Shown: piece by piece, positions 1 through 59,744 of the stretch | Numbering within the stretch: position 1 is the first letter of the stretch | Layout: the number at the start of each line of letters is the position of its first letter | From: Eledone cirrhosa | Taxonomy: Eukaryota | NCBI GenBank assembly: GCA_964016885.1 | Contig: CAXHJY010000119.1 | Location: 5,378-69,377 of the forward strand | Length of the DNA stretch: 64,000 nucleotides | Direction: 5' to 3' | Position numbers and translations under genes: made by a program | Notes under the pieces: generated by a model | Told to the model about the DNA's origin: nothing | Databases searched by the model: none | What the model saw: the letters and a program-made list of their open reading frames with translations, nothing else

Positions 1-4487
<4,487 letters not shown>

Positions 4488-4668
4488 TAGATAAATCTAC
4501 CAAGAGTTTACGGTAGTGTCCAATCCGTATGAAGAACTCAATGTATTCCGGATATCATGGAAAGAAGAGATGTAATGAAAATCCAATTTCGGTGAAAGAT
4601 AAACGGTATACAGAGTCAAGATAAAATAAATAATGAACAAACAATTCCTTATATTAAACAAAAAAAGT

Positions 4669-4821
4669 TCACTATTTAACGATCGTTTCTAGGGCATATA
4701 TGTGCTATAATTGGTATGCATATTTAACAGATCTATGTACAAAATTATACAAAATTATACAAATTATCAAGATTAAATATACATACCTAACTCATATATA
4801 CGCCGTCTTCAGAAATAATGA
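4669..4821 (-). ncRNA. Type I hammerhead ribozyme with very long stem II (left-arm copy)
   Basis: Reverse complement of the 11381-11533 motif. Confidence 0.7.
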
Positions 4822-5591
4822 AGTATATTTATTGATAATAACAACAATTCAAAATATCAGTTCAAAATTGACCAATGAAAACACAAAGGGTTAAAAAGCA
4901 GTTTGGTGTGTGTATATACATGTAAAACCCTACACACATTTTACAATAATGTGTGTATAATATGTATGTGCATACTAAAAAGATGGATGCAAATAAAAAA
5001 TTTCAAGGTTAATATCTCTGTAAGCTTAATGCGCTGATAAGATACGCAATGATACTTATGTAGTCAAGCATATAAATATATTTTTTCTTCATACTCACAC
5101 ATATCAGTATAATCACACATACATGTGCGTATATATATAAATATACACATAACCACGAACACACAAACACACACACACCCCCCACTCACATTTATATATG
5201 TGGATATAAAATCATAAGCAAATAGAAATTAAGTCACTCACATAAACACACTGATACACACATTTCAAGATCAAGATACAGAAATTAGGTGGGAGGGGGG
5301 GGGAGGGGTCAGTATTAGGTTGTCAGACCAGACAGCCTAATATAAATGTATCTATAAATTATGAAAAATAAAAAAATAAAAACAATAAAATATATTACAT
5401 AATATAATGTACATACGCATACAGATATACATACACATACGTACATGTACGCGCACATAGAGATATCTACACATACATAGATACACACATACCTATAGTG
5501 TCCTACACACACATACATTTACACGAACATACACATACACATATAAAAAGATAAAAATACGGACACACACACGCGCAACACATACACACAT

Positions 5592-5640
<49 letters not shown>

Positions 5641-5750
5641 TATACACACACACACATAGACTCATATATATACACATACACATACATATACTTATACATA
5701 AACATATATATCCCACACTCATACCACCATGAAAACACATACAAACATCC

Positions 5751-5789
<39 letters not shown>

Positions 5790-6027
5790 TATGTATACAT
5801 ATAAACATACACACACGTACACATATATGCACATATACATACACATATACACACACACACATACACATATATATATACACACACACATAAAATACAGACA
5901 TGCACATATATATATATATATATATATATATACATTTCATTACCTTTATATATACACATAGTATATATACATACACAACCTCACTTATACACATATACAC
6001 ATAAGTTATATTACAATAATAATAAAG

Positions 6028-6064
<37 letters not shown>

Positions 6065-6203
6065 TATACACACATATACACATATATATACATACACATA
6101 CATATACATACATACATACACATACATACATACACCTAAATATAAACATATATAAATACACACATACGAATAAAGACATATATTCACACATAGACACCTA
6201 TAT

Positions 6204-6246
<43 letters not shown>

Positions 6247-6799
6247 TACCTATATACACACACATACACATACACACACATATACATATATATATATACA
6301 CACATATACACACGCACACACATACAGACACACATACACACTCACACATATATATATATATATATATATATGTGTGTATGTGAGTGTGCGCAAATACACA
6401 CATATATATACACACACACACATATAAACACACACAAACACGTACATATGCATACATGCACACACACACACATATATCACATAGATACGAAGATAAACAT
6501 ATAAATAGAGAGACATACAAATATATACAGAACCCATATACACATACATGCAAACACGCATATACATATATACATATATACACACATATATATTCCTATA
6601 TACAAGCATACACATACGCACACATATATACATATACCTACACATATATATACACCACACATTCACATACACGTACATATATAATACATATATATACATA
6701 CATATACATACATATGTATGTACAATCATATATACACACTCAATCTTACATTCATATTTACATGCTCATATATGTATTTTTATATCTAGAAATAAATAC

Positions 6800-6839
<40 letters not shown>

Positions 6840-8100
6840 ATATAGACACCCATCTACCCATATATTCATACATATACACTTACAAAAACAGATGATAATA
6901 GTATGGGGGAAAGGGGGGGGTTTGGAGAAGGGGATCAAAGTAAATATATGTTTCAAGAAACCTATAATATTTTCCATATCTTAATTCAATGTATGTTCTT
7001 ACATATTTTCAATGCTAGGAAATACGAAATCTATGCATCACAAAATAAAAAAGTATACCATTAATCATATGTCAACTAAATCAAAGATAGTCAACATATT
7101 GATTTCCAAGGTGTAAATTAGTTAGGTTTATAATATTTGAAGCAGAATTATGAAGTCAAACAGTAGTAAATTATTAATTACATTATACCTAAATTAAAGT
7201 TAATAATAGGGAAAAGAAACCCAAATAAAAATAAAATAAAGTATTACATCGGTAGTAGCATATAAATTATATGTAAACTAAGTTAAAAATTATATATTTA
7301 TTTCAATAGTATATGTTAATTAGTATATGTTAATTAGGTATACAATACATAAAGCAGATATTGTATTTCATCAATAGCATAATATAATTATATGCAAATA
7401 AAAATCAAAATTAATACGCATACACATACATATACATACACATACACATACATATACATATACATACACATATATATATATATATATACATATATATACA
7501 CACGTACATACATATATAGTCACATAAATATACATACAGATACACATACAATACACACATATATACATATACATATAGATATACATATCTTTTTCAAAAA
7601 ATTTGCACAGAATATATTAACTAGGTATATATCCAAAAACACCTCCCATTCTATGATTACATGAAATTCTGCAATTCGTCTGTACAAGGATACTAATTTT
7701 AAGCTAATTAAAATTAAAATTAAAGTTTTAGGTTGATTAAAGCTAAAACCAAATAATAAATATATTTCCAAAATGTATATTAATTAGGTCAATAATACTA
7801 AAAATTCTTTCTCCGTCATAGGATACATGATATTATTTTGTTATATTTTATCTGTAAAAGAATTATAATAAAAAAAATTTTATAATAAAAGGTTAAACTA
7901 AATTAAAAAATTATAATAAAAGGTTAAAATAAGTTAAAATTAATCTATAAATTAAATTACTGAATATATATTAGTAATATTTAAAGGTTTTTCAAAATTA
8001 ATGATTACATAATATTTTCTCATCTGTAATAAAATATTAATTAAATTAAATTTATAGGTTAACTAACATTTAAATTAAATTAAATTCTAGAATAATGTTA

Positions 8101-8486
8101 TTAATTAGGTTTATAATATTTAAATGTTTTTTTTAGTTTATGATTACACGATATAATTAATTCTGTCTTTTATTTAATAAGATATCCCTAGACTTCATTA
8201 TTTCAAATAGTTCTTGGGAACATAATCTACATTCCTTTCTATTATTTTGATAAGGGGTGGCTCTTTTGAGCACACTCCAGGTCAAATCATATTTTATATT
8301 TTTATTTTTATAACTATTGATTTTTTCTGCTAGAGATGTTGTATTAGCCAGTGCGGCATTTTTAAAGCTATGTTTGTGGGTATTATACCTTGTCTTAAAA
8401 TTGTTAGAGGTAGCTCCTATATATGAGCAAATAGAATCTTTAGTTTTAACATTACATTTATAGACTATGTTGTTAACAAGACAATT
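8101..8486 (-). pseudogene. PLE GIY-YIG endonuclease C-terminal fragment (frameshift near 8165)
   Basis: Manual translation NCLVNNIVYKCNV..SYIGATSNNFKTRYNTHKHSF..WSVLKRATPY..CRLCSQELFEI..LLNKR/ELIISCNHK; absent from the ORF track. Confidence 0.85.
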
Positions 8487-9362
8487 TTAATTTTAATTAG
8501 CTTAAAATTAGTATCCTTGTACAGACGAATTGCAGAATTTCATGTAATCATAGAATGGGAGGTGTTTTTGGATATATACCTAGTTAATATATTCTGTGCA
8601 AATTTTTTGAAAAAGATATGTATATCTATATGTATATGTATATATGTGTGTATTGTATGTGTATCTGTATGTATATTTATGTGACTATATATGTATGTAC
8701 GTGTGTATATATATGTATATATATATATATATATGTGTATGTATATGTATATGTATGTGTATGTGTATGTATATGTATGTGTATGCGTATTAATTTTGAT
8801 TTTTATTTGCATATAATTATATTATGCTATTGATGAAATACAATATCTGCTTTATGTATTGTATACCTAATTAACATATACTAATTAACATATACTATTG
8901 AAATAAATATATAATTTTTAACTTAGTTTACATATAATTTATATGCTACTACCGATGTAATACTTTATTTTATTTTTATTTGGGTTTCTTTTCCCTATTA
9001 TTAACTTTAATTAGGTATAATGTAATTAATAATTTACTACTGTTTGACTTCATAATTCTGCTTCAAATATTATAAACCTAACTAATTTACACCTTGGAAA
9101 TCAATATGTTGACTATCTTTGATTTAGTTGACATATGATTAATGTATACTTTTTTATTTTGTGATGCATAGATTTCGTATTTCCTAGCATTGAAAATATG
9201 TAAGAACATACATTGAATTAAGATATGGAAAATATTATAGGTTTCTTGAAACATATATTTACTTTGATCCCCTTCTCCAAACCCCCCCCTTTCCCCCATA
9301 CTATTATCATCTGTTTTTGTAAGTGTATATGTATGAATATATGGGTAGATGGGTGTCTATAT

Positions 9363-9399
<37 letters not shown>

Positions 9400-9952
9400 G
9401 TATTTATTTCTAGATATAAAAATACATATATGAGCATGTAAATATGAATGTAAGATTGAGTGTGTATATATGATTGTACATACATATGTATGTATATGTA
9501 TGTATATATATGTATTATATATGTACGTGTATGTGAATGTGTGGTGTATATATATGTGTAGGTATATGTATATATGTGTGCGTATGTGTATGCTTGTATA
9601 TAGGAATATATATGTGTGTATATATGTATATATGTATATGCGTGTTTGCATGTATGTGTATATGGGTTCTGTATATATTTGTATGTCTCTCTATTTATAT
9701 GTTTATCTTCGTATCTATGTGATATATGTGTGTGTGTGTGCATGTATGCATATGTACGTGTTTGTGTGTGTTTATATGTGTGTGTGTGTATATATATGTG
9801 TGTATTTGCGCACACTCACATACACACATATATATATATATATATATATATGTGTGAGTGTGTATGTGTGTCTGTATGTGTGTGCGTGTGTATATGTGTG
9901 TATATATATATATGTATATGTGTGTGTATGTGTATGTGTGTGTATATAGGTA

Positions 9953-9995
<43 letters not shown>

Positions 9996-10134
9996 ATATA
10001 GGTGTCTATGTGTGAATATATGTCTTTATTCGTATGTGTGTATTTATATATGTTTATATTTAGGTGTATGTATGTATGTGTATGTATGTATGTATATGTA
10101 TGTGTATGTATATATATGTGTATATGTGTGTATA

Positions 10135-10171
<37 letters not shown>

Positions 10172-10561
10172 CTTTATTATTATTGTAATATAACTTATGT
10201 GTATATGTGTATAAGTGAGGTTGTGTATGTATATATACTATGTGTATATATAAAGGTAATGAAATGTATATATATATATATATATATATATATGTGCATG
10301 TCTGTATTTTATGTGTGTGTGTATATATATATGTGTATGTGTGTGTGTGTATATGTGTATGTATATGTGCATATATGTGTACGTGTGTGTATGTTTATAT
10401 GTATACATATATATGTATATATATATATATATATATATAGTATATATATCTGGATGTTTGTATGTGTTTTCATGGTGGTATGAGTGTGGGATATATATGT
10501 TTATGTATAAGTATATGTATGTGTATGTGTATATATATGAGTCTATGTGTGTGTGTGTATA

Positions 10562-10612
<51 letters not shown>

Positions 10613-11380
10613 ATGTGTGTATGTGTTGCGCGTGTGTGTGTCCGTATTTTTATCTTTTTATATGTGTATGTGTATGTTCGTGTAAATGTATGTGTGTGTA
10701 GGACACTATAGGTATGTGTGTATCTATGTATGTGTAGATATCTCTATGTGCGCGTACATGTACGTATGTGTATGTATATCTGTATGCGTATGTACATTAT
10801 ATTATGTAATATATTTTATTGTTTTTATTTTTTATTTTTCATAATTTATAGATACATTTATATTAGGCTGTCTGTCTGACAACCTAATACTGACCCCTCC
10901 CCCCCCCTCCCACCTAATTTCTGTATCTTGATCTTGAAATGTGTGTATCAGTGTGTTTATGTGAGTGACTTAATTTCTATTTGCTTATGATTTTATATCC
11001 ACATATATAAATGTGAGTGGGGGGTGTGTGTGTGTTTGTGTGTTCGTGGTTATGTGTATATTTATATATATACGCACATGTATGTGTGATTATACTGATA
11101 TGTGTGAGTATGAAGAAAAAATATATTTATATGCTTGACTACATAAGTATCATTGCGTATCTTATCAGCGCATTAAGCTTACAGAGATATTAACCTTGAA
11201 ATTTTTTATTTGCATCCATCTTTTTAGTATGCACATACATATTATACACACATTATTGTAAAATGTGTGTAGGGTTTTACATGTATATACACACACCAAA
11301 CTGCTTTTTAACCCTTTGTGTTTTCATTGGTCAATTTTGAACTGATATTTTGAATTGTTGTTATTATCAATAAATATACT

Positions 11381-11533
11381 TCATTATTTCTGAAGACGGC
11401 GTATATATGAGTTAGGTATGTATATTTAATCTTGATAATTTGTATAATTTTGTATAATTTTGTACATAGATCTGTTAAATATGCATACCAATTATAGCAC
11501 ATATATGCCCTAGAAACGATCGTTAAATAGTGA
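11381..11533 (+). ncRNA. Type I hammerhead ribozyme with very long stem II (right-arm copy)
   Basis: tcattattt-CTGAAGA-[116-nt hairpin]-GAAA-CGATCG-TT-aaatagtga; 9-bp stem I; palindromic stem III ACGATCGT; predicted GUU site at 11524. Confidence 0.72.
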
Positions 11534-11577
11534 ACTTTTTTTGTTTAATATAAGGAATTGTTTGTTCATTATTTATT

Positions 11578-14063
<2,486 letters not shown>

Positions 14064-15160
14064 TCCAAGTTTCTCATCAACCGTGTCCCGCATGTGCAAC
14101 CCCAAAGAACTAGAAAGACACATACAACACTTCATCCACCGTATGCAGTTCTCTGGTTACAATCAGAGAGATAAGATCAGAGTATATAGAGGAGCCAGAA
14201 CCAAATGGGAAAAAATGGTAAATAATGATACAAATGGGACCTGCCCCTCGTACAGGAGCAAATTTTGGAATAGAATAGAAAGAACTAGGAATAAGGTTAA
14301 TAGAATAAACTCATGGTATGATAGTAGAAAGACCAGGTACCTCCATAAAAATACTTATTAGCAATACATACCGTTTTCAAAGACCTCCCTGTATAGACAA
14401 GAAATGTATAAACTGTAAAATAAGCCCCCATATTAACTGTAAAACTAGAAATGTAGTATATAGCATAAGATGTACTGATGGACAATGTAGAGATAAGAAT
14501 ATAGTGTAATATAGGTGAGACAGCTCGTAGTATAGGAGAACGGATAAATGAACACTGGCGAGAGCTTCAAGATAGTAAAGAATCATCTGTACTCTGCCAA
14601 CATGCTAAAATAGAACATAAGGGTAAATTAAAGAACATAGAAATAAAAATCGAATCTACACACAGAAAAGACGCAATGTTTAGACAAATCACAGAGGCAA
14701 TAAACATAAATGAACTCCAACCAAAATTAAATAGAAAGCATGAATGGAATAGCAACATCACAACTTACAAGTAAGGACAAAATGAAAACACACACACACT
14801 TAGAACAAACAACCAACCAGTAACATGTAAATAAACAAATAAATAAACAAATAGAAATACACACATGTAACACATGCGCAAACTAAGCACACAACACACA
14901 CAAAAACAAGATGGCGTAGGACAGAACAAAGGAGAGGCACAAAAACAAAGAAAAGAATCCCCAGTCACTGAAGAGGTCACAGAATGTGTGACGAAAGAAC
15001 TTTGACAATATATGAACAATCGTCTGGTTGTGGAACCAACCAACCAATCGGAAATTTATAAATTCCTAAATTTATAAATTTAATTTATTATAAATTGAAG
15101 TGAAAGCAACTGGTGCGTGTGTTTCTTATTGGCAACATGACCCTCCCAAAGTATAACATA
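14064..15160 (+). mobile_element. 5'-truncated Penelope-like element (RT thumb, Cys linker, GIY-YIG, 3' UTR with HHR)
   Basis: [26 protein letters not shown]; PCIDKKCINC..NCKTRNVVYSIRC; IGETARSIGERINEH; LNRKHEW; contains stops and a deletion. Confidence 0.88.
14964..15006 (+). ncRNA. Minimal type I hammerhead in PLE 3' UTR
   Basis: gtca-CTGAAGA-g-gtcac..gtgac-GAAA-gaac-TT-tgac. Confidence 0.6.
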
Positions 15161-15649: not shown

Positions 15650-18600
15650 GTTTATCAAAGTTCTTTCGTTGCACATCTACAGCATCGTCAGTGGTGCTAT
15701 GTTTCCTTCCGTTGCATTGTATTTTCTACGCCATCTTTATTTAGTCTGTTTATATATTTATTTATTTGTTTATTTTATTTTGTCTTCTTTGCGCATGCGT
15801 TTGCGTGTGTGTATAGTGTTTTGTTTGATGTGTGTTCGTGATTGGATGGCTGTGTATCGGTTAATGTATTCTATCTTTACTAGTGTGTGTTTATATGTGT
15901 TTGTTGTTATTGTGCTTGTGTATGTATTTATTTATTTATTTATTTATTTATACTTCTCTTAGGTCAGTGTTGTTTGTTTGGGTGTTGTTGTTATTCCATT
16001 CATTTTTTCTGTTTAGCCTTGGCCTTCTAAGTTCTATTTCACTGGTCTTTCTGATTTGCCTATCTGCTGGGTCATTTCTATGTTTAGATATTATTCTAAT
16101 TTCTATGTTGTCTATGTTACCGTCGTGTTGTTGTCTGCATGTTCGTATAGTACTGAAACCGTTTTTTCGTCTTTTTAGTTCCCCCCAGTGTTGGTCTATC
16201 CTTTCACCTATGCTACGAGCTCTCTCGCCTATGTATGTTGTTGTCATGTTTCTGCAAGTACCCTCTGTACATCTTATGCTATTGACTACGTTTCTAGTTT
16301 TACAGTTTATCCGGGGTTTACTCTACATATGATACATTTCCTATTAGTACAGTGGGTTTTCTTAAAAGGGTAGGTTTTGCTGATCAGGGATTTTTATGGT
16401 GGTTCCTGGCTTTTCTACCACCTTAATCTTTAAGTGGGTCTTTCTCAGGGCCTTTCTACATTGGTTAGCTAATTTCCCTCCAGGGGTAGCGCCCACAAAC
16501 ATGACACTCTGGTATCTCTGGTTGTCGTACCATGAGGTGTTTTTCCTTATCTTATGTCTAGCCCTATCTAAGCTATTCCATGATTTGCTCCTGTATAAAG
16601 GGCAAATTCCTTTCATGTCCAGTTCTATGAGGGTCTTATACTTCTCCGTGGCTCCTTCGTATACTCTGATTCTGTCTCTTTGGTTGTAGCCAGAGAACTG
16701 CATGCGGTTGATGAAGTGTTGGATGTGTCTTTCCATTTCTGTTGGGTCGCACATGCGGGACACGTTCTTCATCACTCGTTCCAAGTCTGCGATCAGAATA
16801 TTAAACTTAGCACTACTGGACATTGCTGAGTTTTTGAATATCAGGTATTTGGAGGCCATGGGTGAGTGGAGAATTTGGGCTCTCTCATCTATAGTGTTAA
16901 TCCAGAGTTCCGTGTCTAATACAGGTAGTCTATTGTTAGGGTGTTTGGAAGGGTAGTCGAGAGTTACAGTTATACTCTGGTGTATGGAATTAGCTATCTG
17001 CTGGATGCTTTCCATTGTGCTACGTTCTAAATCAAACTTGTTAGTGCTCTCTTGTGGAGATGTTCTTATAACTATATTGATATCGTCTACGTAACGAGAG
17101 TACATGATGAGGTCTATGGAGCTCTTATTAAGGAGATCTTTAAGTCTCCTTTCCCACCATACCATAAAAAGGTTGGCAACGTCACCAGCTATGCTGACGC
17201 CAATGGCTGCTCCTTCATTTTGGGTGTAGATCTTCTCGTTGAACTTGAATATGTGGCCCTTTAGGCTAGTTTTGATACTAGCCCCTATTGCATGTGCGAC
17301 CATTTTTCTTACCTGATCATTGTTTTGGGGTGTCCGTATAGCTTTGGTCCACCCAATCAACCTTCCCATGGGAGTCTTTTTAGCCATTGATGTTATGGTG
17401 GGGTGGGGTCTACCTCTTATGGGTCTACTGGGGCAGAAACGTCTAAGGTTATGGCTGTCTAGGTAGTCAGTGTCGTAGGTAAGTCTAAGTAGGAGGTCCA
17501 GTTCGTCTGTGTCGACGTCGCAGAACTCCACCTCACTCTCAATGATCATCTCCACACATTTTTCCACAGCAAAATCAATGTTATTGGATGGGTACAGTGA
17601 TACTACATCCATGCTGCCTATTATGCAGTTGGATAGGTTCCTGTTTTGTTGCACTCACTGATTCTGCTGAGGAGGTCCTCTGTACTGTCACATACATCTG
17701 AGGACATCTTGATTATGGGGCGTATAACCATTGAGAGGAAGTAGGAGATCCTGTAGTTGTTAGCTATATTTACTCCGGATACGGGTCTTGTTGGTGGTCC
17801 TGTTGTCGGGTCGTCGACTTTCTTGTGGTCTTTGCGGAGTCCATACAAGGGTGGTATGCCATTGTTAGACGCCTGGAAGTTGTTGGCAGTGCGTCTGCTT
17901 GGCTTTAGGATGTCGGTCCACATCATCATGTGAGCGTTGAGGATTTTCTCTCTCCCATCATGTATTTGCTGTGCAATTTCGCTCGTGTTGGTGATGTGGG
18001 GTTGCATAGCCTTGATGTAGTTCGGCATGCTATCTATTGACATCTTACTAGACTTATCCGTGGGTAGACATACTACCTCACCATCCCTTGTGCGCTGCTT
18101 GAGGCTAACCAAGCCTTCTACAGGTTTCCTCCAAGTTGTTGGGCCTCTGGTCGGCTGTCTCTTAGTATACCGGTATACTATTTGTCTAATCTTATTTCTA
18201 GCTATGGTGAACTGTGCCTCTGTCTCGTCATCTATTTGATGTGGTATGCAAACTCTTTTATTAAAGGGTAACCTCGTAGGATAGATATTACCCATCTTAT
18301 ATGTGGGTTGAAGAATAGTTTCTCTAAGGGGTTGTCATTATATTTATCGTCATAGTTGTGTGTGTTGCTATTATTGTTATTATGGTGGTTGTTGTTGTTC
18401 CTATCATTAGCATTATTATTATTGTCATGATTGCTAGATGTATTGTTGCTGTGATTGTTAGATGTATCGTTGTTATGATTGCTACATGTATTGTTGCTGT
18501 GATTGTTGTTTTCTTCACCGTTATTGTTGTTGTTACTGTATTTCTACCGTTGTGGTTGTTACTTTTATTATGTTTCTTGTTTTTGTTGTGTCTATCATTA

Positions 18601-19224: not shown

Positions 19225-19457
19225 TTAGAAACACACAGATGCATGTGGACACACACATATATACATGAATGCATCCGCACCCAACTGTGAGTTAAGGGTG
19301 CCAACTTCACCGATGTTGCTCAATGAATGACTGGGACAGACCAATTCAGTTGAACTAGACTGAACCAGTATCAGAGTTAAAAATACATTATGAAGAGAGA
19401 AGAAACATTTAGATATAATTAGTAATAAAATGTATCATACCTAAACTGCTCCTAAAT

Positions 19458-19547
19458 TCCTCGACTACGTAGTTTCGTGGCATAAACAAAAACAATATAT
19501 CATAAAGATATAGAGTCCTTGCGAGGTCTGCCGACTTATCAAGAGGA
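19458..19547 (-). ncRNA. Type I hammerhead, U3-A8 core variant, branched stem II
   Basis: Reverse complement: tcctc-TTGATAA-gtcggca..tgccac-GAAA-CTACGTAG-TC-gagga. Confidence 0.72.
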
Positions 19548-20052
19548 TACCTCATTTTACTAGTCTCAAGAACGCGTCTACACGACGTGAGAAAGAATCC
19601 CAAAAGGCGGAGGGGGAGATAGTCACGCGATATAACGGTCGAGAAACAGAGCTAAGCCTCTTATAACCTCGAAGAAAATACCACGGAGGCGGAGGGGGTA
19701 TTTATATCGAGGCCGCAGAAGAGGTGGTGAAGAAGGCGAGAAGTATGAGTAATGGAAGCTTACCAGCTGTCCCCACACTTCAAAGATTGCTCGACCAGAG
19801 GGAGTTATTAACAATATATTTAGAAACAGACAGATACATGTGGACACACACATATATACATGAATGCATCCGCACCCAACTGTGAGTTAAGGGTGCCAAC
19901 TTCACCGATGTTGCTCAATGAATGACTGGGACAGACCAATTCAGTTGAACTAGACTGAACCAGTATCAGAGTTAAAAATACATTATGAAGAGAGAAGAAA
20001 CATTTAGATATAATTAGTAATAAAATGTATCATACCTAAACTGCTCCTAAAT

Positions 20053-20142
20053 TCCTCGACTACGTAGTTTCGTGGCATAAACAAAAACAATATATCATAA
20101 AGATATAGAGTCCTTGCGAGGTCTGCCGACTTATCAAGAGGA
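20053..20142 (-). ncRNA. Second copy of the U3-A8 hammerhead
   Basis: Same sequence as 19458-19547. Confidence 0.72.
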
Positions 20143-20489
20143 TACCTCATTTTACTAGTCTCAAGAACGCGTCTACACGACGTGAGAAAGAATCCCAAAA
20201 GGCGGAGGGGGAGATAGTCACGCGATATAACGGTCGAGAAACAGAGCTAAGCCTCTTATAACCTCGAAGAAAATACCACGGAGGCGGAGGGGGTATTTAT
20301 ATCGAGAAAAACTCCGCCTAACATGTGATTTCACATATATGCATATATATATATATATATGCATATATATACATATACATGCATATATATACATATGCAT
20401 ATATACATATATATGCATATATGTATATATATATATATATGCATATACATACATATATATGCATATATATGTGTGTGTGTGTGTGTGTA

Positions 20490-42530: not shown

Positions 42531-44930
42531 TCATCATCATCATCATTTGACGTCCATTTTCCACACTAGCATCGGTAGCAGAGACAGTCCCTTTGTGAGA
42601 GAGCAGGTCAGAGGACTTTGATTTGCATACACAGAATTGATTTTGGCTTGTTTTCTACAGCTGGATGCCCTTCCTAATGCTAACCACATTTAGAGTGTGT
42701 ATACCTACATGACCACTTTAGTGTGTGCTGGTTGGTTGCTTTTTGTCGTGTCACCATCATGACCATTTTACAGTGTGGGCTGGGCGCTTTTTGTTATGAC
42801 ACATACTCAACCACTTTACAGAGTGAACTGGGCACTTTTTGTCATGATATCTACATGACAACTATACAGTGAGGGCAGGGTGTTTTTGTCGTGACACCTA
42901 CACAACCACTTTACAGAGTGGACTGCACGCTTTTGTTGTGACACCTACACAGCCACTTTACAGTGAGGGCTGGGCATTTAATTTTGAGGCTCCAGGGAGT
43001 CAACTTTATGGTGAGGGTGGGTGAGGATTAGGGACTTGGATGGGGTGGAGAAGAAGCCTGAGGAATTGGAGACATAGGTATAGGGGTGGGATGATTACAG
43101 CAAGGGAGATGGTAGGGAAAGGTGTTGCCTACTAAATATATGCCTCAGCTCAAGCATGTTGGAAGGCGTGTCTTCTGTAATACTGAATAGCGCCAGAGAA
43201 CACGGTTCTGTGTCATTGCCTTAGCGAAGTGTAATTGTGCAAGGCCAGCTTTTATTACCTCATCCCAAGTCTTCCTAGGCCTGCCCACTCCAAGGCTACC
43301 ATCAACTATGAGCACTCTGCACTTTTTTATATTACTGTCATCCTTCATATGCATCACATGTCCATACCAATGCAATCTCCTCTCCTGCACACTGCATCTT
43401 ATCTCTCTTATGCCTAATTTCTCTCGCAGTTCATTTATGCTTCGCCGTTCACTTATATTACTATTGCACATCCATTGAAGCATGGAGGCTTCATTCCTTT
43501 CCAATCTTCACAGGTCCTCTGTGCACAGTGCCCATGCCTCACTGTCATGCAACATTGCTGTTCGTTATAGTCATTGTTTCTTCGCTATAGTCATTAATAA
43601 TTCTGACTTTGCTGATTGTTCTTTTATGCATGGCTTGTACTGCCCTCACAAGAAACCCATCTACTCCTAGTTTTCTAAGAACCCACCAGATAATGGAATG
43701 GGAAATCTGTCAAAAGCTTTCTCCAAGTCAACAAAAACCAAGTAGAGTGGTATACTCCTAGCTAGGTACTTCTCCTGCAGTAGTCTTACAAGGAAGTGGG
43801 CATCTGTGGTACTTTTACTTGGCACAAATTCAAACTGCATCTCATCTAGGTTAACTCGTTCCTTAATCAGCTGAGCTATGACTCTTTCAGTGACCGTCAT
43901 AACCTGGTCAACCAACTGAATGTCCCTGTAGTTTTCTCTATTTAGAGCATCGCCTTTGCCCTTGTAGCAGTTGACAATGATGCTGCTACGCCAGTGATTG
44001 GGTATGACACCATTTTGTATAACTTGGTTAACAATGCAGGAGACTATGGTGTGGCTCACCATTCCTGATGCTTTCAGCATCTCAGCTGCCCTGCTTGACT
44101 TCATATCGTTGATTGCCTTACTTACTATTCTACTGCTGACTTATACAGCCGGTCCCTCTGTTGGGTCAACATGTGACAAACTTTCTTCTTCCCATGCATT
44201 CTCCTTTCCATTCTACCTTCTTTTCAGCGTCAGTGAGGGCAAGTTTGCCAAAATCATTTTGTACACACTTCTCCCCACTGACATCACAATTTACCCTGAC
44301 ACATTGTCTTGCGATCCTTAACACGTCATGCTTTTGATCATCATGCTGAAAAACATGCTTAATTTTTTTTGTTTTCTGCTTCCCTTCTTGCAATGTAAAC
44401 TCGACGCCTAGCTTCTCCCCTAGCCTTCTGGTAGGCTTCTCTGCTACCCCCATTTCACCATTCCTTCCAAGCCTGTCTTTTGGCCTTAATTGTATCATCT
44501 ACCTTACTATTCCACCACCAAGTAAGTCACTCTCCGTTTCCCTAGAGACCTACTCCAACCACAGGTTTCATCTGTCACCCTCAGTAGGTTTTCTTTTAGG
44601 AACTCCCACTGCTCCTCTATAATGTATGTCTCTATGTGCTCTTCCTTACTGTCAAAGGCATCAGTGAATATACTTCTGAATTTGTTGTTGTTTGATGGGT
44701 CTTTTAACCGCCATACTCTGGTTGTCTTCTGTTGCCGAGTTCTTCTAGCCCTGATTACAAGGTCGCTAACTTCTAAGTTATGTTGGGAGATGCATTTTTC
44801 ACTAGGGAGGGACTTTGTGTTCCTAATGGTTACTGTCTTACCTTCTGGTAAGAATGAAATCTATTTGGTTAGCATGCACACCTGATCTATAGGTGATTAA
44901 GTGGATGTCTCGTTTTTTGATGTTCGCGTT
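42531..44930 (-). mobile_element. Degraded, internally deleted RTE-clade LINE; 3' UTR with ~44-bp tandem repeats (42690-42980) and (GAT)n tail
   Basis: YKGKGDAL..NYR, QEKY..LYLVFVDLEKAFD, ERNEASMLQWM, RRLHWYGHV, GRPRKTW; APE remnant NQIDFIL. Confidence 0.9.
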
Positions 44931-44932
44931 AC

Positions 44933-44979
<47 letters not shown>

Positions 44980-45014
44980 GTATGTATATATGATACAATA
45001 TATATATATATATG

Positions 45015-45410
45015 TGCAGGAGAGGGAGATTGCGTTGGTATGGACATATGTTGCGTATGAAGGATGACAACTGCATAAAAAAGTGCAGAGAGCTTAGTCG
45101 TTGGAAGCCTTGGAGTGGGGAGACCCAGGAAGACCTGGGATGAGGTGAAAAAAGCCGACCTTGCCCAATTGCACCTCTCAGAGGAGATAACACATGACCG
45201 GGATCTCTGGCGATATGCAGTAATACAGAAGACCCAACTTCCCATGAACAGAAGCTGAAGCATATGTACAGTATCCCACGCCCCCAACAACCCAGCCCAC
45301 ACTGTAAAGTGGACATGTAAAAGAAACGGCAAAAAGCGGCGCACACTGTAAAGTGGACACGGCAAAAAGCATCCAGCCCACAATGTAAATGTTGTTGGCA
45401 TTAGGAAGGT
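45015..45410 (+). mobile_element. RTE LINE 3' fragment
   Basis: [21 protein letters not shown]; similar to 53455-53850. Confidence 0.85.
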
Positions 45411-46279
45411 AATAATATAATGTCACATCATCTATATGTCTTTCTCCTCATTTGGGTCCGTATATATAAATGGAAGCAATAATCAAAAATAAAAAAAAAA
45501 GTAAAATGGAGTACAATAACATGCAGTTATATCAATAAAAGAATAAAATGTTGTTAACGGTGCACATATATAAATAAATTAAGTTCAACTTTTGGGGTGA
45601 CATGCTTCAGACAATCTTAACTATAATAAAGAAAGGAGTGCGGGATTGTGTCCAGAATATATTTTTTTACCCCATTTGTAAAATAAGTTGGATTACTTTG
45701 AATAAATAATGAATGAATATTACATAATTTATGTGCTAAATTTTGTGGCAGTTGATTAAATATATTTTATAACTTATTTAAAGACCTTTAAAATTTTCAA
45801 ATGTCAACACTTCCGGTTAGCGGCTGTTATATTATAACACTTATAAAAATATTGCATATATTTCCGTCGCTAATTTTCTCCTAATGCAGTTTATATATAA
45901 TATCGTCTTTTTTTAAATGTATCATGGATTACGTTACTGATTACAGAAGACAGTGTAACATACATAGACTTTGTTCAATTTCTGTGTATATTGTCAATTA
46001 CAATTTTATTTGATGTATCATATCTCCATGCATATATATTTGTGTATAATATCAATATACACACTACACATGCTAGCAGAAAAACCACCCGACGGACGGT
46101 TTTCTGCTAGTATACCCTAATATTCATATTAATATATATATTCTTATATATTCTGTTACTATGTCGTCTATAATTGGGGGTGTGATTCGACAGATAGACA
46201 CGGCCTGAGGTCCATGAGGTAAACCAAAGGAGGGATGCATGAACACGTCGCTCTATAGTGCTCACTCTACTATTATCCG

Positions 46280-46480
46280 GGAATTCCAGTGCAAAAAAGG
46301 TGCAATTCCATTGATGCCTGCATACTATGATAACTTCAGATTTTAGGTTGACTGCATTATCCTTTAATCTGACTATCTCCATGGATTCTGTCAGACATAG
46401 TCTACATAGTCCTTCACCGGTGGAATATGCAACCACACGTTGTACTACACTCCAGTAGAACTTGTACGCTGTGCCACTAT
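46280..46480 (-). pseudogene. PLE GIY-YIG C-terminal remnant
   Basis: FYWSVVQRVVAYSTGEGLCRLCLTE..VNLKSEVIIVCRH; same motif as 8101-8486. Confidence 0.65.
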
Positions 46481-46712
46481 CTTTCAGACCCCTATCGGTG
46501 GTATAGGAACAGTAAATATAGTAGTAAGTGACGTCTGAACGCGCACGACAGCTTGACTGGAGGATAGACAAACGCCACCCAGAGAATAGCATGATGATGA
46601 TAATGGGATAATTGAACCAATGAAAAGGCCGAAATAACAGGATGATAATATGTGCTGTAGATAATAGTTGAAGTGTTTCAACAAACAGAATCGGAGACGA
46701 ACTAATATACCA

Positions 46713-46806
46713 AACATATCTGATGAACTTTTGATTACAGAATCAGGTTCGATCTGTAATAGATCTTGCCTCGAGCTAATTGATAGAGGAACATATGTAA
46801 TATGTT
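46713..46806 (+). ncRNA. Hammerhead-like motif with long stem II (GAAA reads GGAA)
   Basis: aacatat-CTGATGA-..-GGAA-CATATG-TA-atatgtt; perfect 7-bp stem I and palindromic stem III. Confidence 0.55.
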
Positions 46807-46990
46807 ATTAAATATATGATATGATATGCAACACTGAATCCTCGTTCTTTATCGTTATATTATATTTTGCTCTGCGCGAGCATCGAGTGTTCAACTGGCA
46901 TACCGCCTACGGACACATTTATCTTGCAACCTTAGAATAATATATATATATATAACGTATATATGTCTGTATATCTATCTGTCTATATAT

Positions 46991-47021
<31 letters not shown>

Positions 47022-47076
47022 GAGTAGTAATAATAAATGTGAAGACTAAAATCCAAAGAGGGCTCGATAAGGATAA

Positions 47077-50010
47077 TCATCATCATCATCATCATCATTA
47101 TCATACGTCCGCTTTTCCTTGCTTGCAAGGGTGGGACAGGTCTTATTCAGCACAGCATCTCTCCACTTGTCACGGTCTTTTGTCATCTCCTCCGTGAGCT
47201 TCAGCGATCTGAGGATTTGTCCTCACCACCTCCACCCATGTCTTTCTTGGTCTTCCTCTACTGCGTCTTCCTTCTACTGGGATTTCTTGGCAATTCTTTA
47301 CTCAGTGGTCATCCTCCATGCGCATCACATGCCCATACCATCGCAGTCTTCTCTCCTGCACACTACAACTTATCCCTCTTATACATAGTTTCTCTCTCAA
47401 CTCATCCATGCTTGGTCGTTCATGCACATTAACATTACTCATCCAACGGAGCATGCTTGCTTCATTTCTCTCTGCAGTTACTGCCCATGTCTCACTACCA
47501 TGCAGCATCGCGCATCTCACACATTCATCATATAACCGTCCTTTCGTACGCAGGGAGAAACCCTTCTTTGTCAACAGAGGAAGCAGCCCCCTAAACTTCT
47601 TCCAACCCGTCCTTATTCTAGATACTATGGCCTCGGAACACCCCCCTGTACATCTACTGCATAGGTAGTTTTCCCTACCTGTTAGTTTGCCTGCTATCTC
47701 ACTACATCTCTTGTGTACCCCAGATCTGCATTACGTACATTTTATGGAATTTATTCCAGTTCCTTTCCTACATATCGAACATGGCCATTTCCCTGATGGA
47801 ATCAGAGTATTGTCCTCTCTTCTACTTATCAACACTTTTGTCTTAGCTATGTTCACTCTCAGACCTCTTGATTCCAACTGCTGTTTCCATAGCCAGAATT
47901 TCTTCTCAAGCTCCTCTACTGATTCTGCTATAAGAACCAGATCATCAGCATAGAGAAGTTCCCATGGGCATCCAGTCTTAAACTCCTCTGTTATGGCTTG
48001 GAGGACTATAATGAACAAGAGTGGGCTGAGGACTGAAACCTGATGCACACCTACTTGTATCTGAAAATCCTCATTAAACTCCATGCCTACTCTCACTTTA
48101 CTGACAGCACCCCTGTACATAGCTTGCACTGTCCTCACAAGCCATTCCTCTACACCTAGTTTCCTTAGGGACCACCAGATAACAGATCGGGCTACCCTCT
48201 CAAAGGCCTTCTCTAGGTCAACAAAAGCTAAGTATAGTGGCTTATTCTTCTCTAACAACTTCTCTTGTAGTTGCCTCACTAAGAAGAGGGCATCTGTTGT
48301 ACTTTTCCCAGGCACAAAACCAAACTGCATCTCATCTAATTTGATCCTTTTTCTAATCAGTTGTGCTAATATTCGCTCTGCTACTTTCATAACCTGATCC
48401 ATCAGCTTTCTGCCCCTATAATTGCTCCACTCTAGAACATCCCCATTACCTTTGTAGCAATTTATGAGAATACTGCTGCACCAGTCTTTGAGTATGACAC
48501 CACCATATATAGCTTGATTGATGATGCGTGCAACCAGTTTAGTGCCTACTTCTCCTGATGCCTTCAGCATCTCAGCAACTATCCCCGACGCTCCAGCAGC
48601 CTTACCATTCTTCATTTCCTTAATTGCCTCTTGTACCCTATATTCGTCAATCTCAATAGCTGGTCCCTCTGTTGGGTCTACTGGGGGTAATTTCTCTTTG
48701 TCCCATTTGTTCTCCACATTCATCAGTCTCTCATAGTGACATTTCCAGGGCCTCCTTTTTTTGATCATTCTTCCGGACACACTTATCTCCAACAACATCC
48801 TGATTTGCAATGACACACTGCCTTGCAATGCAGAGCACCGCATGTCTCTGATCTTCCCGTTGCAGAACATTGGCAAACCTACTGTCGGCCTCCCTGCGTG
48901 CTAAGTACACCTGACGTCTAGCTTATCTCTTAGCGGCTGTGTATTTTTCCCTACTCCCACCATTTTTCCAAGCCTTCCATGCCACTCTTTTGTCTCTACT
49001 GGCCCTCTCTACCGTGCTGTTCCACCACCAGGTCACTCTCTGTCTAGTTGGAGCTCTGCCCAAACCACAAGTTTCTTCAGTAGCCTGCAGTAAGTTGTCA
49101 CGGAAGAAATTCCAGTTATCATCTATGTCATACAAATCTAAATCGTCTTCTTTTTCGTCATACACGTCTTGAAGGGCTTTGCTAAATTTATATTTTAATG
49201 AAAGGTCTTTTAGCTTCCAGACCTTTCTTTTCCACACCTTCCTGTATGTCTCATTCTTTCTCATGCTTACTGAGATGTCACTAACGACTAAACTATGCTG
49301 TGGGGTACATTCTTCCCCAGGGTATGCCTTAGTATTTGACACCATCTGTCTGTCTCGCTGTCTAACTAGCAGGAAGTCAATCTGGCTTATGTGCTCGCCC
49401 GATTTGTAGGTTATTAGGTGGTTGGTAGGCTTCTGGAAGTTAGTGTTGCAAATGGTTAGTGCATTTGCATCACAAAATTCAAGAAGCCTGACTCCTTCTT
49501 CATTTCTTGAGCCGTAACCGTGCCCACCATGTACTCCAGTGTATCCATCCTGGAGCTGTCCAACATGTCCATTGAAGTCCCCTGCTAACATAATGATGTC
49601 TCTGTCCTCTGTCATTGAGGCTGTTTGTAAAAGTTGCTCGTAAAAGCAGTCTTTCTCTTCTTTACCCAGGCCTACCTGGGGAGCATAGACAGAGATGATT
49701 GTCAGAAGTCTCTTGCCTACAACTAATCTGAGCTTATTTATTCTATCACTAACTCTAACTACCTCTTTTGTCTTATTGATCCATCTCTCAACCAGTAATA
49801 TGCCCACCCCACCTAACCCATCATCATTACCCGCCCAGAAAAGCTTATAACTACGATGTTTGCCTGCGATTAGTCTTGCAGAGGCACCTCTCAATCTCAC
49901 CTCTTGCACACATCCACATGCCTTCTCTCCAGCATCTCTATCTCACCAGATCTACCTGTTAGAGTGCCAACATTAAGTGTGGCAACTCTGAGATGCGACG
50001 CCTGATTCCT
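47077..50010 (-). mobile_element. Near full-length, frameshifted RTE-clade LINE (APE + RT)
   Basis: ATLNVGTL, QEVR, SVYAPQ, GDFNGHVG, QIDF; FVDLEKAF, GVHQVSVLSP, LYADD; (GAT)n tail. Confidence 0.95.
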
Positions 50011-50279
50011 TTTTCTGTTGTGCGATTGATTGATGACGGTCGTGGGGTTGTCACACATGGCCTCACTAGCCACCCCACTACCGTGCACAGCCCTAACATG
50101 GTTAGTGTTATTGCTGTTTACGTATTTGTTTTTGTGCGATTGCTTGATGAGTGCGGGGGTTCTCGCACATGGCCGCACCAGCCACCCCACTATCATGTGC
50201 AGCTCTAAAATGGTTAGTGTTATTGCTGTTTACGCAGTTGTTGCAAATTTCATTCATTGCGTTCATAGTGTTTGGCAGT

Positions 50280-50645
50280 AGTATATATACTGGTTGGATG
50301 CCCTTCCTAGCCCCAGCACCACTTTACAGCATGGACTGGGTGCTTTTATTTGTGCCACCAGCACTAGAGAGTTTGTCTTACTAGACTCAGGGGCTCTCTT
50401 TACTCCTCCATTTTACAGCATGGACTGGGTGCTTTTATTCGTGCCACCAGCACTAGGAAGTTGTCTTACTGGACTTAGGGGACTTCTCTACCCCACACCA
50501 ATTTATTTGGAGAGGTAGCTCTCCTAGACGGGTTGCATACACTACAGCTTACGGAGCCTCCATCCACCCCTTTTCTGCCTGATTATATATATATATATAT
50601 CATCATCATCATCGTTTAACGTCCATGTTCCACGCTTGCATGGGT
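50280..50645 (-). mobile_element. RTE 3' UTR/tail fragments
   Basis: ggatgcccttcct..ccactttacag motifs and (CAT)n gtttaacgtcc tail shared with other copies. Confidence 0.6.
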
Positions 50646-50672
50646 TATATATATATATATATATATATCTGT

Positions 50673-51215
50673 ATAAAATATTAAACAAATAATGAATAAA
50701 CAATTCCTTATATTAAACAAAAAAAGTTCATTATTTAACGATCGTTTCTAGGGTATATATGTGTTATAATTGGTATGCATATTCAACAGATCTATGTACA
50801 AAATTATACAAAATTATACAAATTATCAAGATTAAATATACATACCTAACACATATATACGCCGTCTTCAGAAATTATTTCTGAAGACGGCGTATATATG
50901 TGTTAGGTATGTATATTTAATCTTGATAATTTGTATAATTTTGTATAATTTTGTACATAGATCTGTTGAATATGCATACCAATTATAACACATATATACC
51001 CTAGAAACGATCGTTAAATAATGAACTTTTTTTGTTTAATATAAGGAATTGTTTATTCATTATTTGTTTAATATTTTATCTTGACTCTGTATACCGTTTA
51101 TCTTTCACCGAAAGTGGATTTTCATTACATCTCTTCTTTCCATGATATCCGAAATACATTGAGTTCTTCATACGGATTGGACACTACCGTAAACTCTTGG
51201 TAGATTTATCTACAT
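50673..51215 (+). mobile_element. PLE 3'-end remnant forming a perfect palindrome (203-bp arms, centre 50876) plus ~135-nt tail; long-stem-II HHR at 50874-51022
   Basis: Homologous to 4485-4821; ..gccgtcttcagaaat-t-atttctgaagacggc.. Confidence 0.88.
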
Positions 51216-51254
51216 ATATCTGTATATATATATATATATATATATCTGTGTATA

Positions 51255-51295
<41 letters not shown>

Positions 51296-51302
51296 GTGTA
51301 TA

Positions 51303-51355
<53 letters not shown>

Positions 51356-51915
51356 GTATATATATATGTATATATATATGTATATGTATATGTATATGTA
51401 TATATATATGTGTATATATATATGTATATATGTATATATATATGTATATATGTATATATATATGTATATATATGTATATATATGTATATATGTATGTATA
51501 TATATATATGTATATATATATGTATATATGTATATATATATGTATATATATGTATATATATGTATATATGTATGTATATATATATATGTATATATATGTA
51601 TATATGTATGTATATATATATATGTATGTATGTATATATATATATGTATATATATGTATATATGTATGTATATATATATATGTATATGTATATATATATG
51701 TGTATATGTATATGTGTATATGTATATGTATGTATATATATATATGTATATATATATGTATATATATGTATATATATGTATATATACATGTATATGTATA
51801 TATATATGTGTATATGTATATGTGTATATGTATATGTATATGTATATATATATGTGTATATATATATGTATATATGTATATGTATGTATATATGTATATA
51901 TATATATATATGTAT

Positions 51916-51951
<36 letters not shown>

Positions 51952-52276
51952 GTGTATATATATATTTATATATATGTGTGTATATATATGTGTATATATA
52001 TGTGTATATATATATGTATATATGTGTATATATATATATGTATATATGTGTGTATATATATATATGTATATAGATGTGTGTATATATATATGTATATATA
52101 TGTGTATATATATGTGTATATATATATGTATATATATGTATGTATATATATGTGTATATATATATATATGTATATATATGTGTATATGTATATGTGTATA
52201 TGTATATATGTGTATATATATATATGTATATATGTGTATATGTATATATGTGTATATATATATATGTATATATATG

Positions 52277-52307
<31 letters not shown>

Positions 52308-52332
52308 GTATATATATGTGTATATATATGTG

Positions 52333-52368
<36 letters not shown>

Positions 52369-52606
52369 TGTGTATACATATATCTGTATATATATATGTA
52401 TATATATAAATATGTGTATATATATATGTATATGTATAAATATGTGTATATATATATGTATATGTATAAATATGTATATATATATATGTATATATATAAA
52501 TATGTATATATATATATGTATATATATAAATATGTATATATAAATATGTATATATAAATATGTATATATATATATGTATGTATATATATATGTGTATATA
52601 TATATG

Positions 52607-52638
<32 letters not shown>

Positions 52639-52770
52639 TATATGTGTATATATATATATGTGTATATATATATATGTGTATATATATATATATGTGTATA
52701 TATATATATATGTGTATATATATATATATGTATATATATAAATATGTATATGTATATGTATATATATATA
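51216..52770. repeat. (TA)n/(TATG)n tract
   Basis: Directly visible. Confidence 0.96.
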
Positions 52771-53993
52771 TGGTAGAACTAGAGAATAAATTCCAAACTT
52801 GGAAGCAGGGACTAGAAAGAAAGGGTCTCAAAGTCAACATGACAAAGACTAAGGTCCTTGTAAGTAGATGAGAAAACAGAACCCAGATCCCCTCAGGGAA
52901 ATGGCCTTGCTCAGTATGTAGGAAAGGTGTAGGTAGGAACTCCATTCTCAGCCCCAAATGCAAACAATGGGTACACAAGAGATGTAGCGGGATCTCAGGA
53001 AGCTTAATTAAGAATGTAGGCTTTACATGCAGCAGCTGTGCTGGGACAGCAGGCAGCAAACAGCCACAGGAAACAAGTACCACCAATCTCTGGGAGGGCT
53101 CTGTAGAAACAGTAGACAGCTTCTGCTACCTAGTGACCGAATTAGCAGCCGAGGTGGGTGTTCAGAAAGTACAATAACTAGGTAAGAACGGGATGGAAGA
53201 AGTTTAGGGAACTACTACCACTGCTAGCTGCAAAAGGCTTCTCCCTTAGAATGAAAGGCAGACTGTATGATGCGTGTATCCGAACAGCAATGTTGCATGG
53301 CAGTGAGACCTGGGCGCTGAAGGTGGAAGACTTAAGTAGATTACAGAGAAACGAAGCCTGCATGCTCCGATGGATGTGTAACTAATATACGTGAACGACA
53401 AAGCATAAATGAATTGAGAGAGAGACTGAGCATAAGAGGAATCAAATGCTGTGTGCAGGAGAGGCAGTTGTGCTGGTATGGACATGTGATGCGTATGAAG
53501 GATGACAGCTGCATAAAAAGGTGCAGGGCACTATAAGTTGGCGGAAACCGCGGAGTTGGGAGACCCAAGATGACCTGGGATGAGGTGATAAAAGCCGACC
53601 TTACCCAATTACACCTCTCGAAGGCAATGAGTCACGACCGTGACTTCTGGCGTCACGCAGTAATACAGAGTACCCAACCTCCCATGGGTACAGGCTGAAG
53701 CATATAGACAATATGCCCCCACACCCCCCACCGCAAGGTGGTCGTGTAGGTGCCACGGCAAAAAAAGCACCCAGCCCACACTGTAAAGTGGACGTGTAGG
53801 CGCCACGAAAAAGCACCCAGCACTCACTGTAAATGAGGTTGGTGTTAGGAAGGGCATCCAGCTGTAGACATCAAGTCAAATCAGTTCCTATATGAGCAAG
53901 GCATGGTCAGCCGACCAGACACTGCCCACAACAGGACAACCCGTCTAACCCATCCTAGCGTGGAAGAACGGACGTAAAACAGTGATGATGATG
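52771..53993 (+). mobile_element. 5'-truncated RTE LINE
   Basis: [41 protein letters not shown]; (GAT)n tail. Confidence 0.92.
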
Positions 53994-54057
53994 TATATGT
54001 ATATATATATATGTATATATGTATATATATGTATATATGTATATATATGTATGTATG

Positions 54058-54088
<31 letters not shown>

Positions 54089-55330: not shown

Positions 55331-55352
55331 TATATATATGTAGTATATATAT

Positions 55353-55392
<40 letters not shown>

Positions 55393-55475
55393 GTATATAT
55401 ATATATGTATATATGTATATATATATATGTATATATGTATATATATATATGTATATATATATATGTATATATATG

Positions 55476-55530
<55 letters not shown>

Positions 55531-55531
55531 G

Positions 55532-59743: not shown

Positions 59744-59744
59744 G

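Follow-up and report, generated by a model that had tools for sequence, protein, structure and literature searches.

A type I hammerhead motif with a 116-nucleotide stem II in the leader of a Hydra-clade Penelope-like element of Eledone cirrhosa

The stretch analysed here (referred to as the window) comprises 64,000 nucleotides (nt) of contig CAXHJY010000119.1 from assembly GCA_964016885.1 of Eledone cirrhosa. At positions 11380-11534 of its forward strand lies a motif that an earlier note on this DNA had described as a Penelope-associated hammerhead ribozyme with a stem II of ∼116 nt, and all the parts named there are found at the positions given. In the Penelope-like element (PLE) to which it belongs, the motif sits in the leader or pseudo-long terminal repeat (pLTR), ∼490 nt before the ATG of an intact open reading frame (ORF) with reverse transcriptase (RT) and GIY-YIG parts, and recurs at the end of each 6.4-kb unit. 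Its features, including those proposed in the course of this work, are as follows.

11380-11389, plus strand: 5′ strand of stem I, 10 nt, of which the final 7 remain if the transcript begins at 11383
11383, plus strand: putative transcription start, the A of TCA, 7 nt before C3, marked by a hotspot of 5′ breaks with an extra G
11390-11396, plus strand: hammerhead core C3-A9, CTGAAGA (CUGAAGA in RNA)
11397-11512, plus strand: insert of stem II, 116 nt
11414-11421, plus strand: splice-donor-like site matching the consensus at 7 of 8 positions, GT at 11416-11417, with a putative function
11434-11444 with 11463-11472, plus strand: conserved apical module GAU-N4-UGUA / UACA-UAG-AUC
11513-11524, plus strand: G12-A15.1 plus stem III, with GAAA at 11513-11516
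11516-11523, plus strand: stem III palindrome ACGATCGT, 8 nt
11524, plus strand: predicted cut after U17 (H17 = T11524), a GUU site
11525-11534, plus strand: 3′ strand of stem I
11564-11574, plus strand: second copy of the stem I 5′ strand, lying downstream and predicted to pair with the 3′ strand in an off hairpin

The region is predicted to fold at −43.5 kcal/mol (z −4.4), and none of 200 shuffled sequences was equally stable. The core of a type I hammerhead, CUGANGA ... GAAA ... UH, is complete (11390-11396, 11513-11516 and U11523-U11524). Stem I pairs as proposed before, over 10 bp (11380-11389/11525-11534) rather than 9, and the palindromic stem III was borne out. The insert of stem II consists of a basal helix with a C·C mismatch, a middle helix of ∼14 bp, an apical internal-loop module and a 10-nt loop of repeats; the apical module was found in 12 of 12 representatives, one of which carries two substitutions. 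The terminal loop of this arm lies >30 bp from the core, and the folds showed no identifiable contact between loops I and II of the kind known from canonical type I motifs. A dimer in the form of a double hammerhead is predicted at −98.0 kcal/mol versus twice −41.7 kcal/mol for the monomers, and stem III, which forms with a probability of 0.25 in the predicted monomer, is stable only in the dimer, which agrees with a model of cleavage in the dimer.

Comparisons with published elements refer, throughout, to parts of the cited papers. With the hammerheads of metazoan PLEs (Cervera and De la Peña 2014, PMC4209133) the motif shares a type I fold in the pLTR, the CUGANGA-H core, the extra base after A9, the R10.1-Y11.1 pair and a palindromic stem III for cleavage as a dimer. 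Those hammerheads are minimal, with a helix II of 4 to 8 bp, whereas the insert here has 116 nt (90 to 126 nt in sister families) and is rod-like or branched; an extra A before G12 (A11512) and the 10-bp stem I are further differences. In the published consensus, helix II is short (up to ∼8 bp) and G10.1-C11.1 adjoins G12; this does not describe the present motif, whose 10.1-11.1 pair is G-U, A-U or G-C among representatives. That PLE hammerheads usually have a short stem II, as had been stated before, agrees with the Hydra rows examined from Craig et al. (2021, PMC8557442) and with 17 metagenome relatives, all of which are short; Hydra-1_Obim and six others have stems II of 3 to 7 bp with loops of 4 to 8 nt. 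The view that unpaired bases at the stem II junction are atypical holds on one side only: the extra base after A9, like the palindromic stem III, matches the minimal PLE hammerhead consensus, whereas the A before G12 is indeed atypical and is present in 12 of 12 representatives and in a further family, J. The GUU site, also called atypical, did not turn out to be so, since sister families have GUA and U17 occurs in Hydra-1_Obim and Penelope-17_HM in File S2 of Craig et al. In the literature searched, Lunse et al. 2017 and Arkhipova et al. 2017 excepted, no long stem II was found in a PLE hammerhead. An Rfam search gave 587 matches, the best 150 of which include no hammerhead and are microRNA models on TA repeats.

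The host family is young and intact. Its tandem arrays have unit spacings of 6,211 to 6,375 bp with intact ORFs, in head-to-tail runs of three to four near-identical units, and the query has 40 top matches of 100% identity in the 3.0-Gb genome, several of them lying within arrays. The single ORF of the intact unit codes for 812 amino acids, begins 488 nt after C3, and has the RT first and the GIY-YIG domain at the C terminus (YRDD at 346, GIY-YIG-like at 692). A Pfam search of this ORF gave no match. The ORF contains RWR at 37, DKT at 115, a CxCX5C linker (CNCRNKTNC) at 673, CxxC..E at 771 and N..CxH at 790, and it lacks GxKF/Y and CX2-5CxxC. By its sequence motifs, as defined in PMC8557442, the element is assigned to the Hydra clade, members of which (e.g., Hydra-1_Obim) likewise have an RWK-like motif, DKT, the CxCX5C linker, CxxC..E and N..CxH, (TA)n targets, a tandem and inverted structure and a hammerhead; a tail, as known for Hydra-clade PLEs, is also present here. 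The unit stated for the clade is <3 kb, compared with 6.4 kb here. Three other assignments were rejected, namely, a Naiad PLE, which requires an N-terminal endonuclease where this one is C terminal; a Nematis or Neptune PLE, whose CX2-5CxxC linker and DKG are missing from the ORF; and a non-LTR retrozyme, which needs a short non-coding tandem unit where the units here have 6.2 to 6.4 kb and are coding. A search of viral contigs found no relative.

The long arm is no local oddity but the majority form for this core and palindrome in the E. cirrhosa genome. With the same core and palindrome, spacers of 100 to 130 nt gave 10,876 genome matches versus 13 for a reversed control, those of 70 to 99 nt gave 2,187 versus 4, those of 35 to 69 nt gave 128 versus 15, and those of 5 to 34 nt gave 123 versus 8; another palindrome gave 2,270 matches at 70 to 100 nt (control, 10). 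For the one palindrome, 13,063 matches with inserts of 70 to 130 nt thus stand against 123 short ones, so that descriptors with short spacers miss most hammerheads of this type here. The core-only search of Craig et al. 2021 used a spacer of 7 to 17 nt, too short for the long-armed form (PMC8557442). It follows that elements scored as hammerhead-less may carry long-armed ones. Among 77 metagenome loci with related ORFs, a search permitting inserts of up to ∼200 nt found a sense-strand hammerhead in 17, all with inserts of 10 to 25 nt.

The arms of families A to D and F are rod shaped, that of E has a three-way branch, and that of J is again a rod but an unrelated one; insert lengths cluster at 90 to 126 nt, and deletion derivatives are single copies. 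Hammerheads of the B/C type lie 702 to 731 nt after the ends of ORFs that are 75 to 85% identical to the 812-residue protein (6 loci), family F is directly linked to an ORF with 72 to 78% identity, and family J to one with 49% identity over the N terminus. An RT tree was discarded because the ORF pieces beside three of the hammerheads (L096, L146 and L159) belong to other families, at least two of which carry hammerheads of their own; two more of its labels were unverified, and the host genome was confounded with arm length. Family E (L255, L257 and L265; G000:C1 near 60.2, 63.3 and 70.9 Mb) has a branched stem II of 93 to 98 nt in tandem units of 0.73 to 1.0 kb (∼1,750 matches), which may be non-autonomous. 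Family J (L289 and L292) is Hydra-like; its stem II of 90 nt is unrelated, its palindrome differs, and it has a GUC site. Its copies are nearly identical and hence young. Another Hydra-like family, K (L274), has a 12-nt stem II, an apparent U3-A8 core and a weak stem I. More families (L125, L134, L133 and L140) have stem II inserts of 40 to 65 nt and the same palindrome, and one of them may have two side-by-side hairpins.

The check for covariation in stems I and II that the earlier note had called for came out in its favor, with double changes found between sister families. Among 16 aligned representatives, 4 of the 10 pairs of stem I show double changes, and at the C3-G8 core pair 12 rows have C-G and 4 have U-A, the U3-A8 variant being carried by sister family F (164 matches); it has also been reported for the Schistosoma Cercyon PLE (PMC4209133). 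An inner CTGATGA in family F pairs within stem II and lacks a stem I. At the base of stem II (12 representatives, ungapped register from the junction), double changes occur at position 5 (G-C/A-U/U-A), position 6 (U-A/G-C), positions 7 and 11, and position 10 (U-A/G-C/A-U), while the C·C mismatch is invariant. The branched insert of family E has 8 pairs with double changes, with 95% of cells paired versus 30 to 46% for slid partners, and its stem III palindrome covaries, ACGATCGT alternating with ACAATTGT. H17 is U, A or C throughout. Covariation shows that stem I, the stem II base and the C3-G8 pair have been maintained across families. The hammerhead fold, for which cleavage is predicted, is genuine and under selection, in a known PLE clade.

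The 5′ ends of copies suggest where transcription begins. Of the genome matches that end in the hammerhead core, 6,466 retain C at −8, whereas 2,802 are without it and 422 are without A at −7. The first 100 matches listed for the class lacking C(−8) include 70 with foreign upstream DNA, the 30 native subfamilies having been dropped; those for the class lacking A(−7) include 84 with foreign upstream DNA and 16 point mutants. Extrapolation gives ∼1,900 copies beginning at −7 (11383 in the window) versus ∼350 at −6. A G directly precedes the break in 19 of 70 cases at −7 versus 5 of 84 at −6 (P = 0.0006), and in 13 of 64 versus 4 of 83 once templated cases are removed (P = 0.004); genome-wide, 649 matches have G at −8. 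Given that an extra G reflects the cap in full-length L1 insertions (PMC11702581), the extra G together with the break hotspot leads us to infer a capped transcript that likely starts inside stem I, at A11383. A downstream promoter element (DPE) at +28 was tried and rejected, since the match is restricted to groups A1 and D.

The other ends of the copies point to two fixed sites from which reverse transcription would start, each serving one DNA end; they lie ∼60 to 65 and ∼200 nt beyond the cut site. Of 51 distinct ends in family A, 28 stop at the nearer site, 20 at the farther one, and 3 continue into the ORF; all 48 terminal ends fall at the two sites, and each of the 17 inverted pairs comprises a nearer and a farther end. 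The copies examined for ends all extend across the cut site. About 64 copies begin at that site (∼77 with fold-back junctions) versus ∼61 at a control site 10 nt further, without an excess (60 of the 100 listed of 107 at the cut site, after 28 point mutants and 12 fold-back junctions were dropped, and 43 of the 100 listed of 141 at the control site). The 12 junctions join an arm starting at the cut site to one starting at the putative transcription start; they were left out as evidence of cleavage because cDNA fold-back on stem I explains them, and adding them gives no clear excess. The lack of an excess means that cut RNA is no noticeable template. Anolis Poseidon PAc (Frangieh et al. 2024, PMC11167929) similarly has two internal RT start sites downstream of the hammerhead, which define its “tail,” and uncut RNA as the template, without reads at the cut site; extension of both strands has been demonstrated there. 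Its tail is short (30 to 40 bp are quoted for Penelope) and its start sites lie in the ORF, unlike those here, which are ∼137 nt apart in the leader and of which each inverted pair combines both kinds. At one locus (L031:828-845), the long (+200) end coincides with CTACATA, whose letters match those of the invariant strand in the apical module, and could thereby provide microhomology to (TA)n targets.

The RNA that is reverse transcribed is predicted to hold the ribozyme mostly in an off fold. Among the matches listed, a strand resembling the decoy at 11564-11574 is seen in families A to D, F and several others, but not in family E. Once 65 nt of downstream sequence are included, the predicted probability of stem I drops to ≤0.15 in 9 of 10 representatives, and a start at −7 brings it down to <0.2 in 8 of 10. 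These figures are equilibrium predictions, and stem I could form briefly during transcription.

Within stem II, the splice-donor-like site is the best in the leader of family A; it is predicted to be fully paired once 11490 has been transcribed and largely paired locally even earlier. Family F has a donor-like site with 7 of 8 matches at the same place, with a different mismatch, and a candidate acceptor, AG/TTGAGC, precedes the ATG by 35, 34 and 31 nt in A, F and J, while the intervening leader diverges. With nine upstream ATGs in the A leader and seven in that of F, splicing from this donor would excise the cut site along with the two RT start sites and eight of the nine ATGs in A. Whether a leader intron exists is, in our estimate, evenly balanced, and control of splicing by the helix of the long arm seems doubtful. 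A short intron inside stem II (11416-11469; 42 to 54 nt across families) was judged probably too short, given the size limits for introns. The spliced joint was absent from three sequencing-contig runs, which gave one unrelated joint and nothing on starts or ends. D. virilis Penelope (Schostak et al. 2008, PMC2377424) likewise has an internal promoter in the pLTR and a leader intron retained in genomic copies, which begins 46 bp past the transcription start, compared with a putative 33 here; its intron ends at the 5′ side of helix I (PMC4209133), whereas the candidate donor here lies within stem II. The UGUA/UACAUA module recurs in family E with the strand order swapped, and it may equally well bind a protein.

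Taken together, we consider it probable that this type I hammerhead with a 116-nt stem II in a Hydra-clade leader opens a capped transcript, is cut only as a dimer and is mostly off in the template. The motif lies before the ORF and again at the unit end, and its stem I, stem II base and C3-G8 pair have been maintained across families. In this scheme, RNA polymerase II would start at A11383, leaving 7 bp of stem I, and the decoy, which repeats the stem I 5′ strand 40 nt further on, is predicted to capture the 3′ strand, so that RNA long enough for the RT start sites folds off. Reverse transcription from the two sites would then read through the uncut ribozyme. As the least certain step, the long arm would serve the leader as a regulatory domain, hiding a 5′ splice site in families A to D and F and thereby favoring unspliced template over spliced mRNA. 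That the start within stem I, the decoy that turns cleavage off and the sequestering stem II jointly form such a control domain is a tentative proposal, which we hold to be rather unlikely. If true, a single fold would determine whether the RNA becomes a spliced mRNA free of the ribozyme or an unspliced, uncut template, only the latter retaining the RT start sites, and this would offer a mechanism for intron retention in PLEs. Both intron retention and the function of PLE hammerheads are left open in the parts of the papers cited above.

Several observations weigh against this scheme. The number of distinct covarying pairs is weak when compared with shuffles, 132 of 500 reaching the count of the 16-row set and 30 of 500 that of family E; the aligned rows are related, so cell counts are inflated; and the apical module, being nearly invariant, is uninformative on pairing. 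The break tallies were made by eye from the first 100 listed matches, and in family E the 5′ breaks form no hotspot close to the core (3 of 100). One representative, AB, keeps stem I at a probability of 0.84 despite its downstream strand, and the shuffle P values for the downstream match are modest (0 to 0.047). A donor with 7 of 8 matches has an estimated chance of about 1 in 6 of occurring somewhere in an AT-rich leader of 490 nt, and the family J leader has no good donor (best, 5 of 8) despite its 90-nt arm. A spliced genomic copy gave no match in the genome; intron retention predicts this absence, yet it lends no support. The start-site and splice steps leave some long arms unexplained (families E and J), and the occurrence of family K, with its 12-nt stem II, in the same genome indicates that a long arm is unnecessary for Hydra elements generally.

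Some of the same data can be read differently. An active ribozyme might cut unit-length RNA that is then religated to a circle, the long stem II merely stabilizing the fold or binding a PLE protein, and copies would span the cut site because their template had been religated. Such a model was proposed in PMC4209133, and it accords with the head-to-tail arrays, with the resemblance of the invariant UGUA/UACAUA module to a binding site and with the protein-assisted PAc hammerhead (PMC11167929). In a circle, though, no end exists at the point 7 nt ahead of the core where the ∼1,900 copies stop, many with an extra G; these need a linear capped template with its first hammerhead uncut, and breaks at the cut site show no excess, leaving the circle unlikely. 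Slightly less likely still is that the core is no longer catalytic and that the structure is kept as a leader domain, either an internal promoter in DNA or a protein-binding scaffold in RNA. On the putative transcript the insert spans +15 to +130, the region that in D. virilis Penelope holds the internal promoter and the intron (PMC2377424), the junction is nonstandard (extra A before G12; G-U or A-U at 10.1-11.1), and the copies carry no footprint of cleavage. What a dead core leaves unexplained is the change from C3-G8 to U3-A8, a tertiary pair of the active site altered on both sides in the 164 family F matches, along with the covarying stem III palindrome and the restriction of H17 to U, A or C; as to a promoter, the DPE-like match is confined to the two groups named above.

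Lastly, the long arm could be neutral, having arisen in loop II by expansion of a TA/TG microsatellite, whose repeats pair because they are self-complementary. Stem II length tolerates change, the arms of families A to C are rich in TA/GT runs and the genome is full of (TA)n. Against this, family D swaps the TA-rich basal helix for a G/C-rich one in the same register, the arms of E and J are unrelated (90 to 98 nt), and the inserts cluster at 90 to 126 nt with only single-copy deletion derivatives, which makes neutrality very improbable. With the preferred reading of a capped transcript opened by a mostly silent hammerhead, a family with intact ORFs, near-identical copies and >10,000 ends records the RNA start, two priming sites and the absence of cut templates.

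In the window itself, the four copies counted previously are there, but they amount to two insertion events, each an inverted pair, as follows.

about 4485-11583: larger insertion, an inverted pair
8483-11583, plus strand: its right arm, 3′ untranslated region (UTR) and hammerhead, with a “short” end ∼60 nt past the cut site, in (TA)n
4485-8486, minus strand: its left arm, a 5′-truncated copy with a “long” end ∼200 nt past the cut site
50673-51200, both strands: second insertion, a head-to-head pair of hammerhead ends

The left arm of the larger insertion contains the end of a GIY-YIG ORF (8107-8486, minus strand), a 3′ UTR and a hammerhead with C3 at 4812. In the second insertion, the plus arm begins at 50874, which corresponds to the putative start site, and has the long end, while the minus arm has the short end. 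The substitutions in the 50874 copy do keep or improve pairing, as had been noted before, but they include no two-sided covariation: five single-position differences were found, of which four are A/G changes that exchange an A-U pair for a G-U pair or the reverse, and true double changes appear only between sister families and nowhere within the window. Editing by ADAR as a source of the A/G differences was unsupported (A>G 18 versus T>C 14 over ten subfamily groups).

Other elements of the window also carry hammerhead-like sequences. A palindromic array at 23410-28783 consists of 12 copies of a 422-nt unit, each with a short-stem hammerhead, and is retrozyme-like. A second, degenerate Penelope-like element of another clade (14050-14771, plus strand, and 15951-18334, minus strand) has pieces of a YVDD RT and GIY-YIG, an inverted fragment ∼70% alike and a hammerhead-like match at 14968. 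The two copies of a 436-nt direct repeat at 19276-20306 are 100% identical, and each has a minus-strand hammerhead-like match (19542 and 20137) with a U3-A8 core and a 10-nt palindrome. Further hammerhead-like matches lie at 22244 (plus strand; 80 nt with an 8-nt palindrome) and 21587 (minus strand; 30 nt with a 4-nt palindrome). The remaining features are what we take to be a Tc1/mariner-like transposase fragment (29654-30232, minus strand) and, presumably, several RTE-like fragments of long interspersed nuclear elements (43600-61800).
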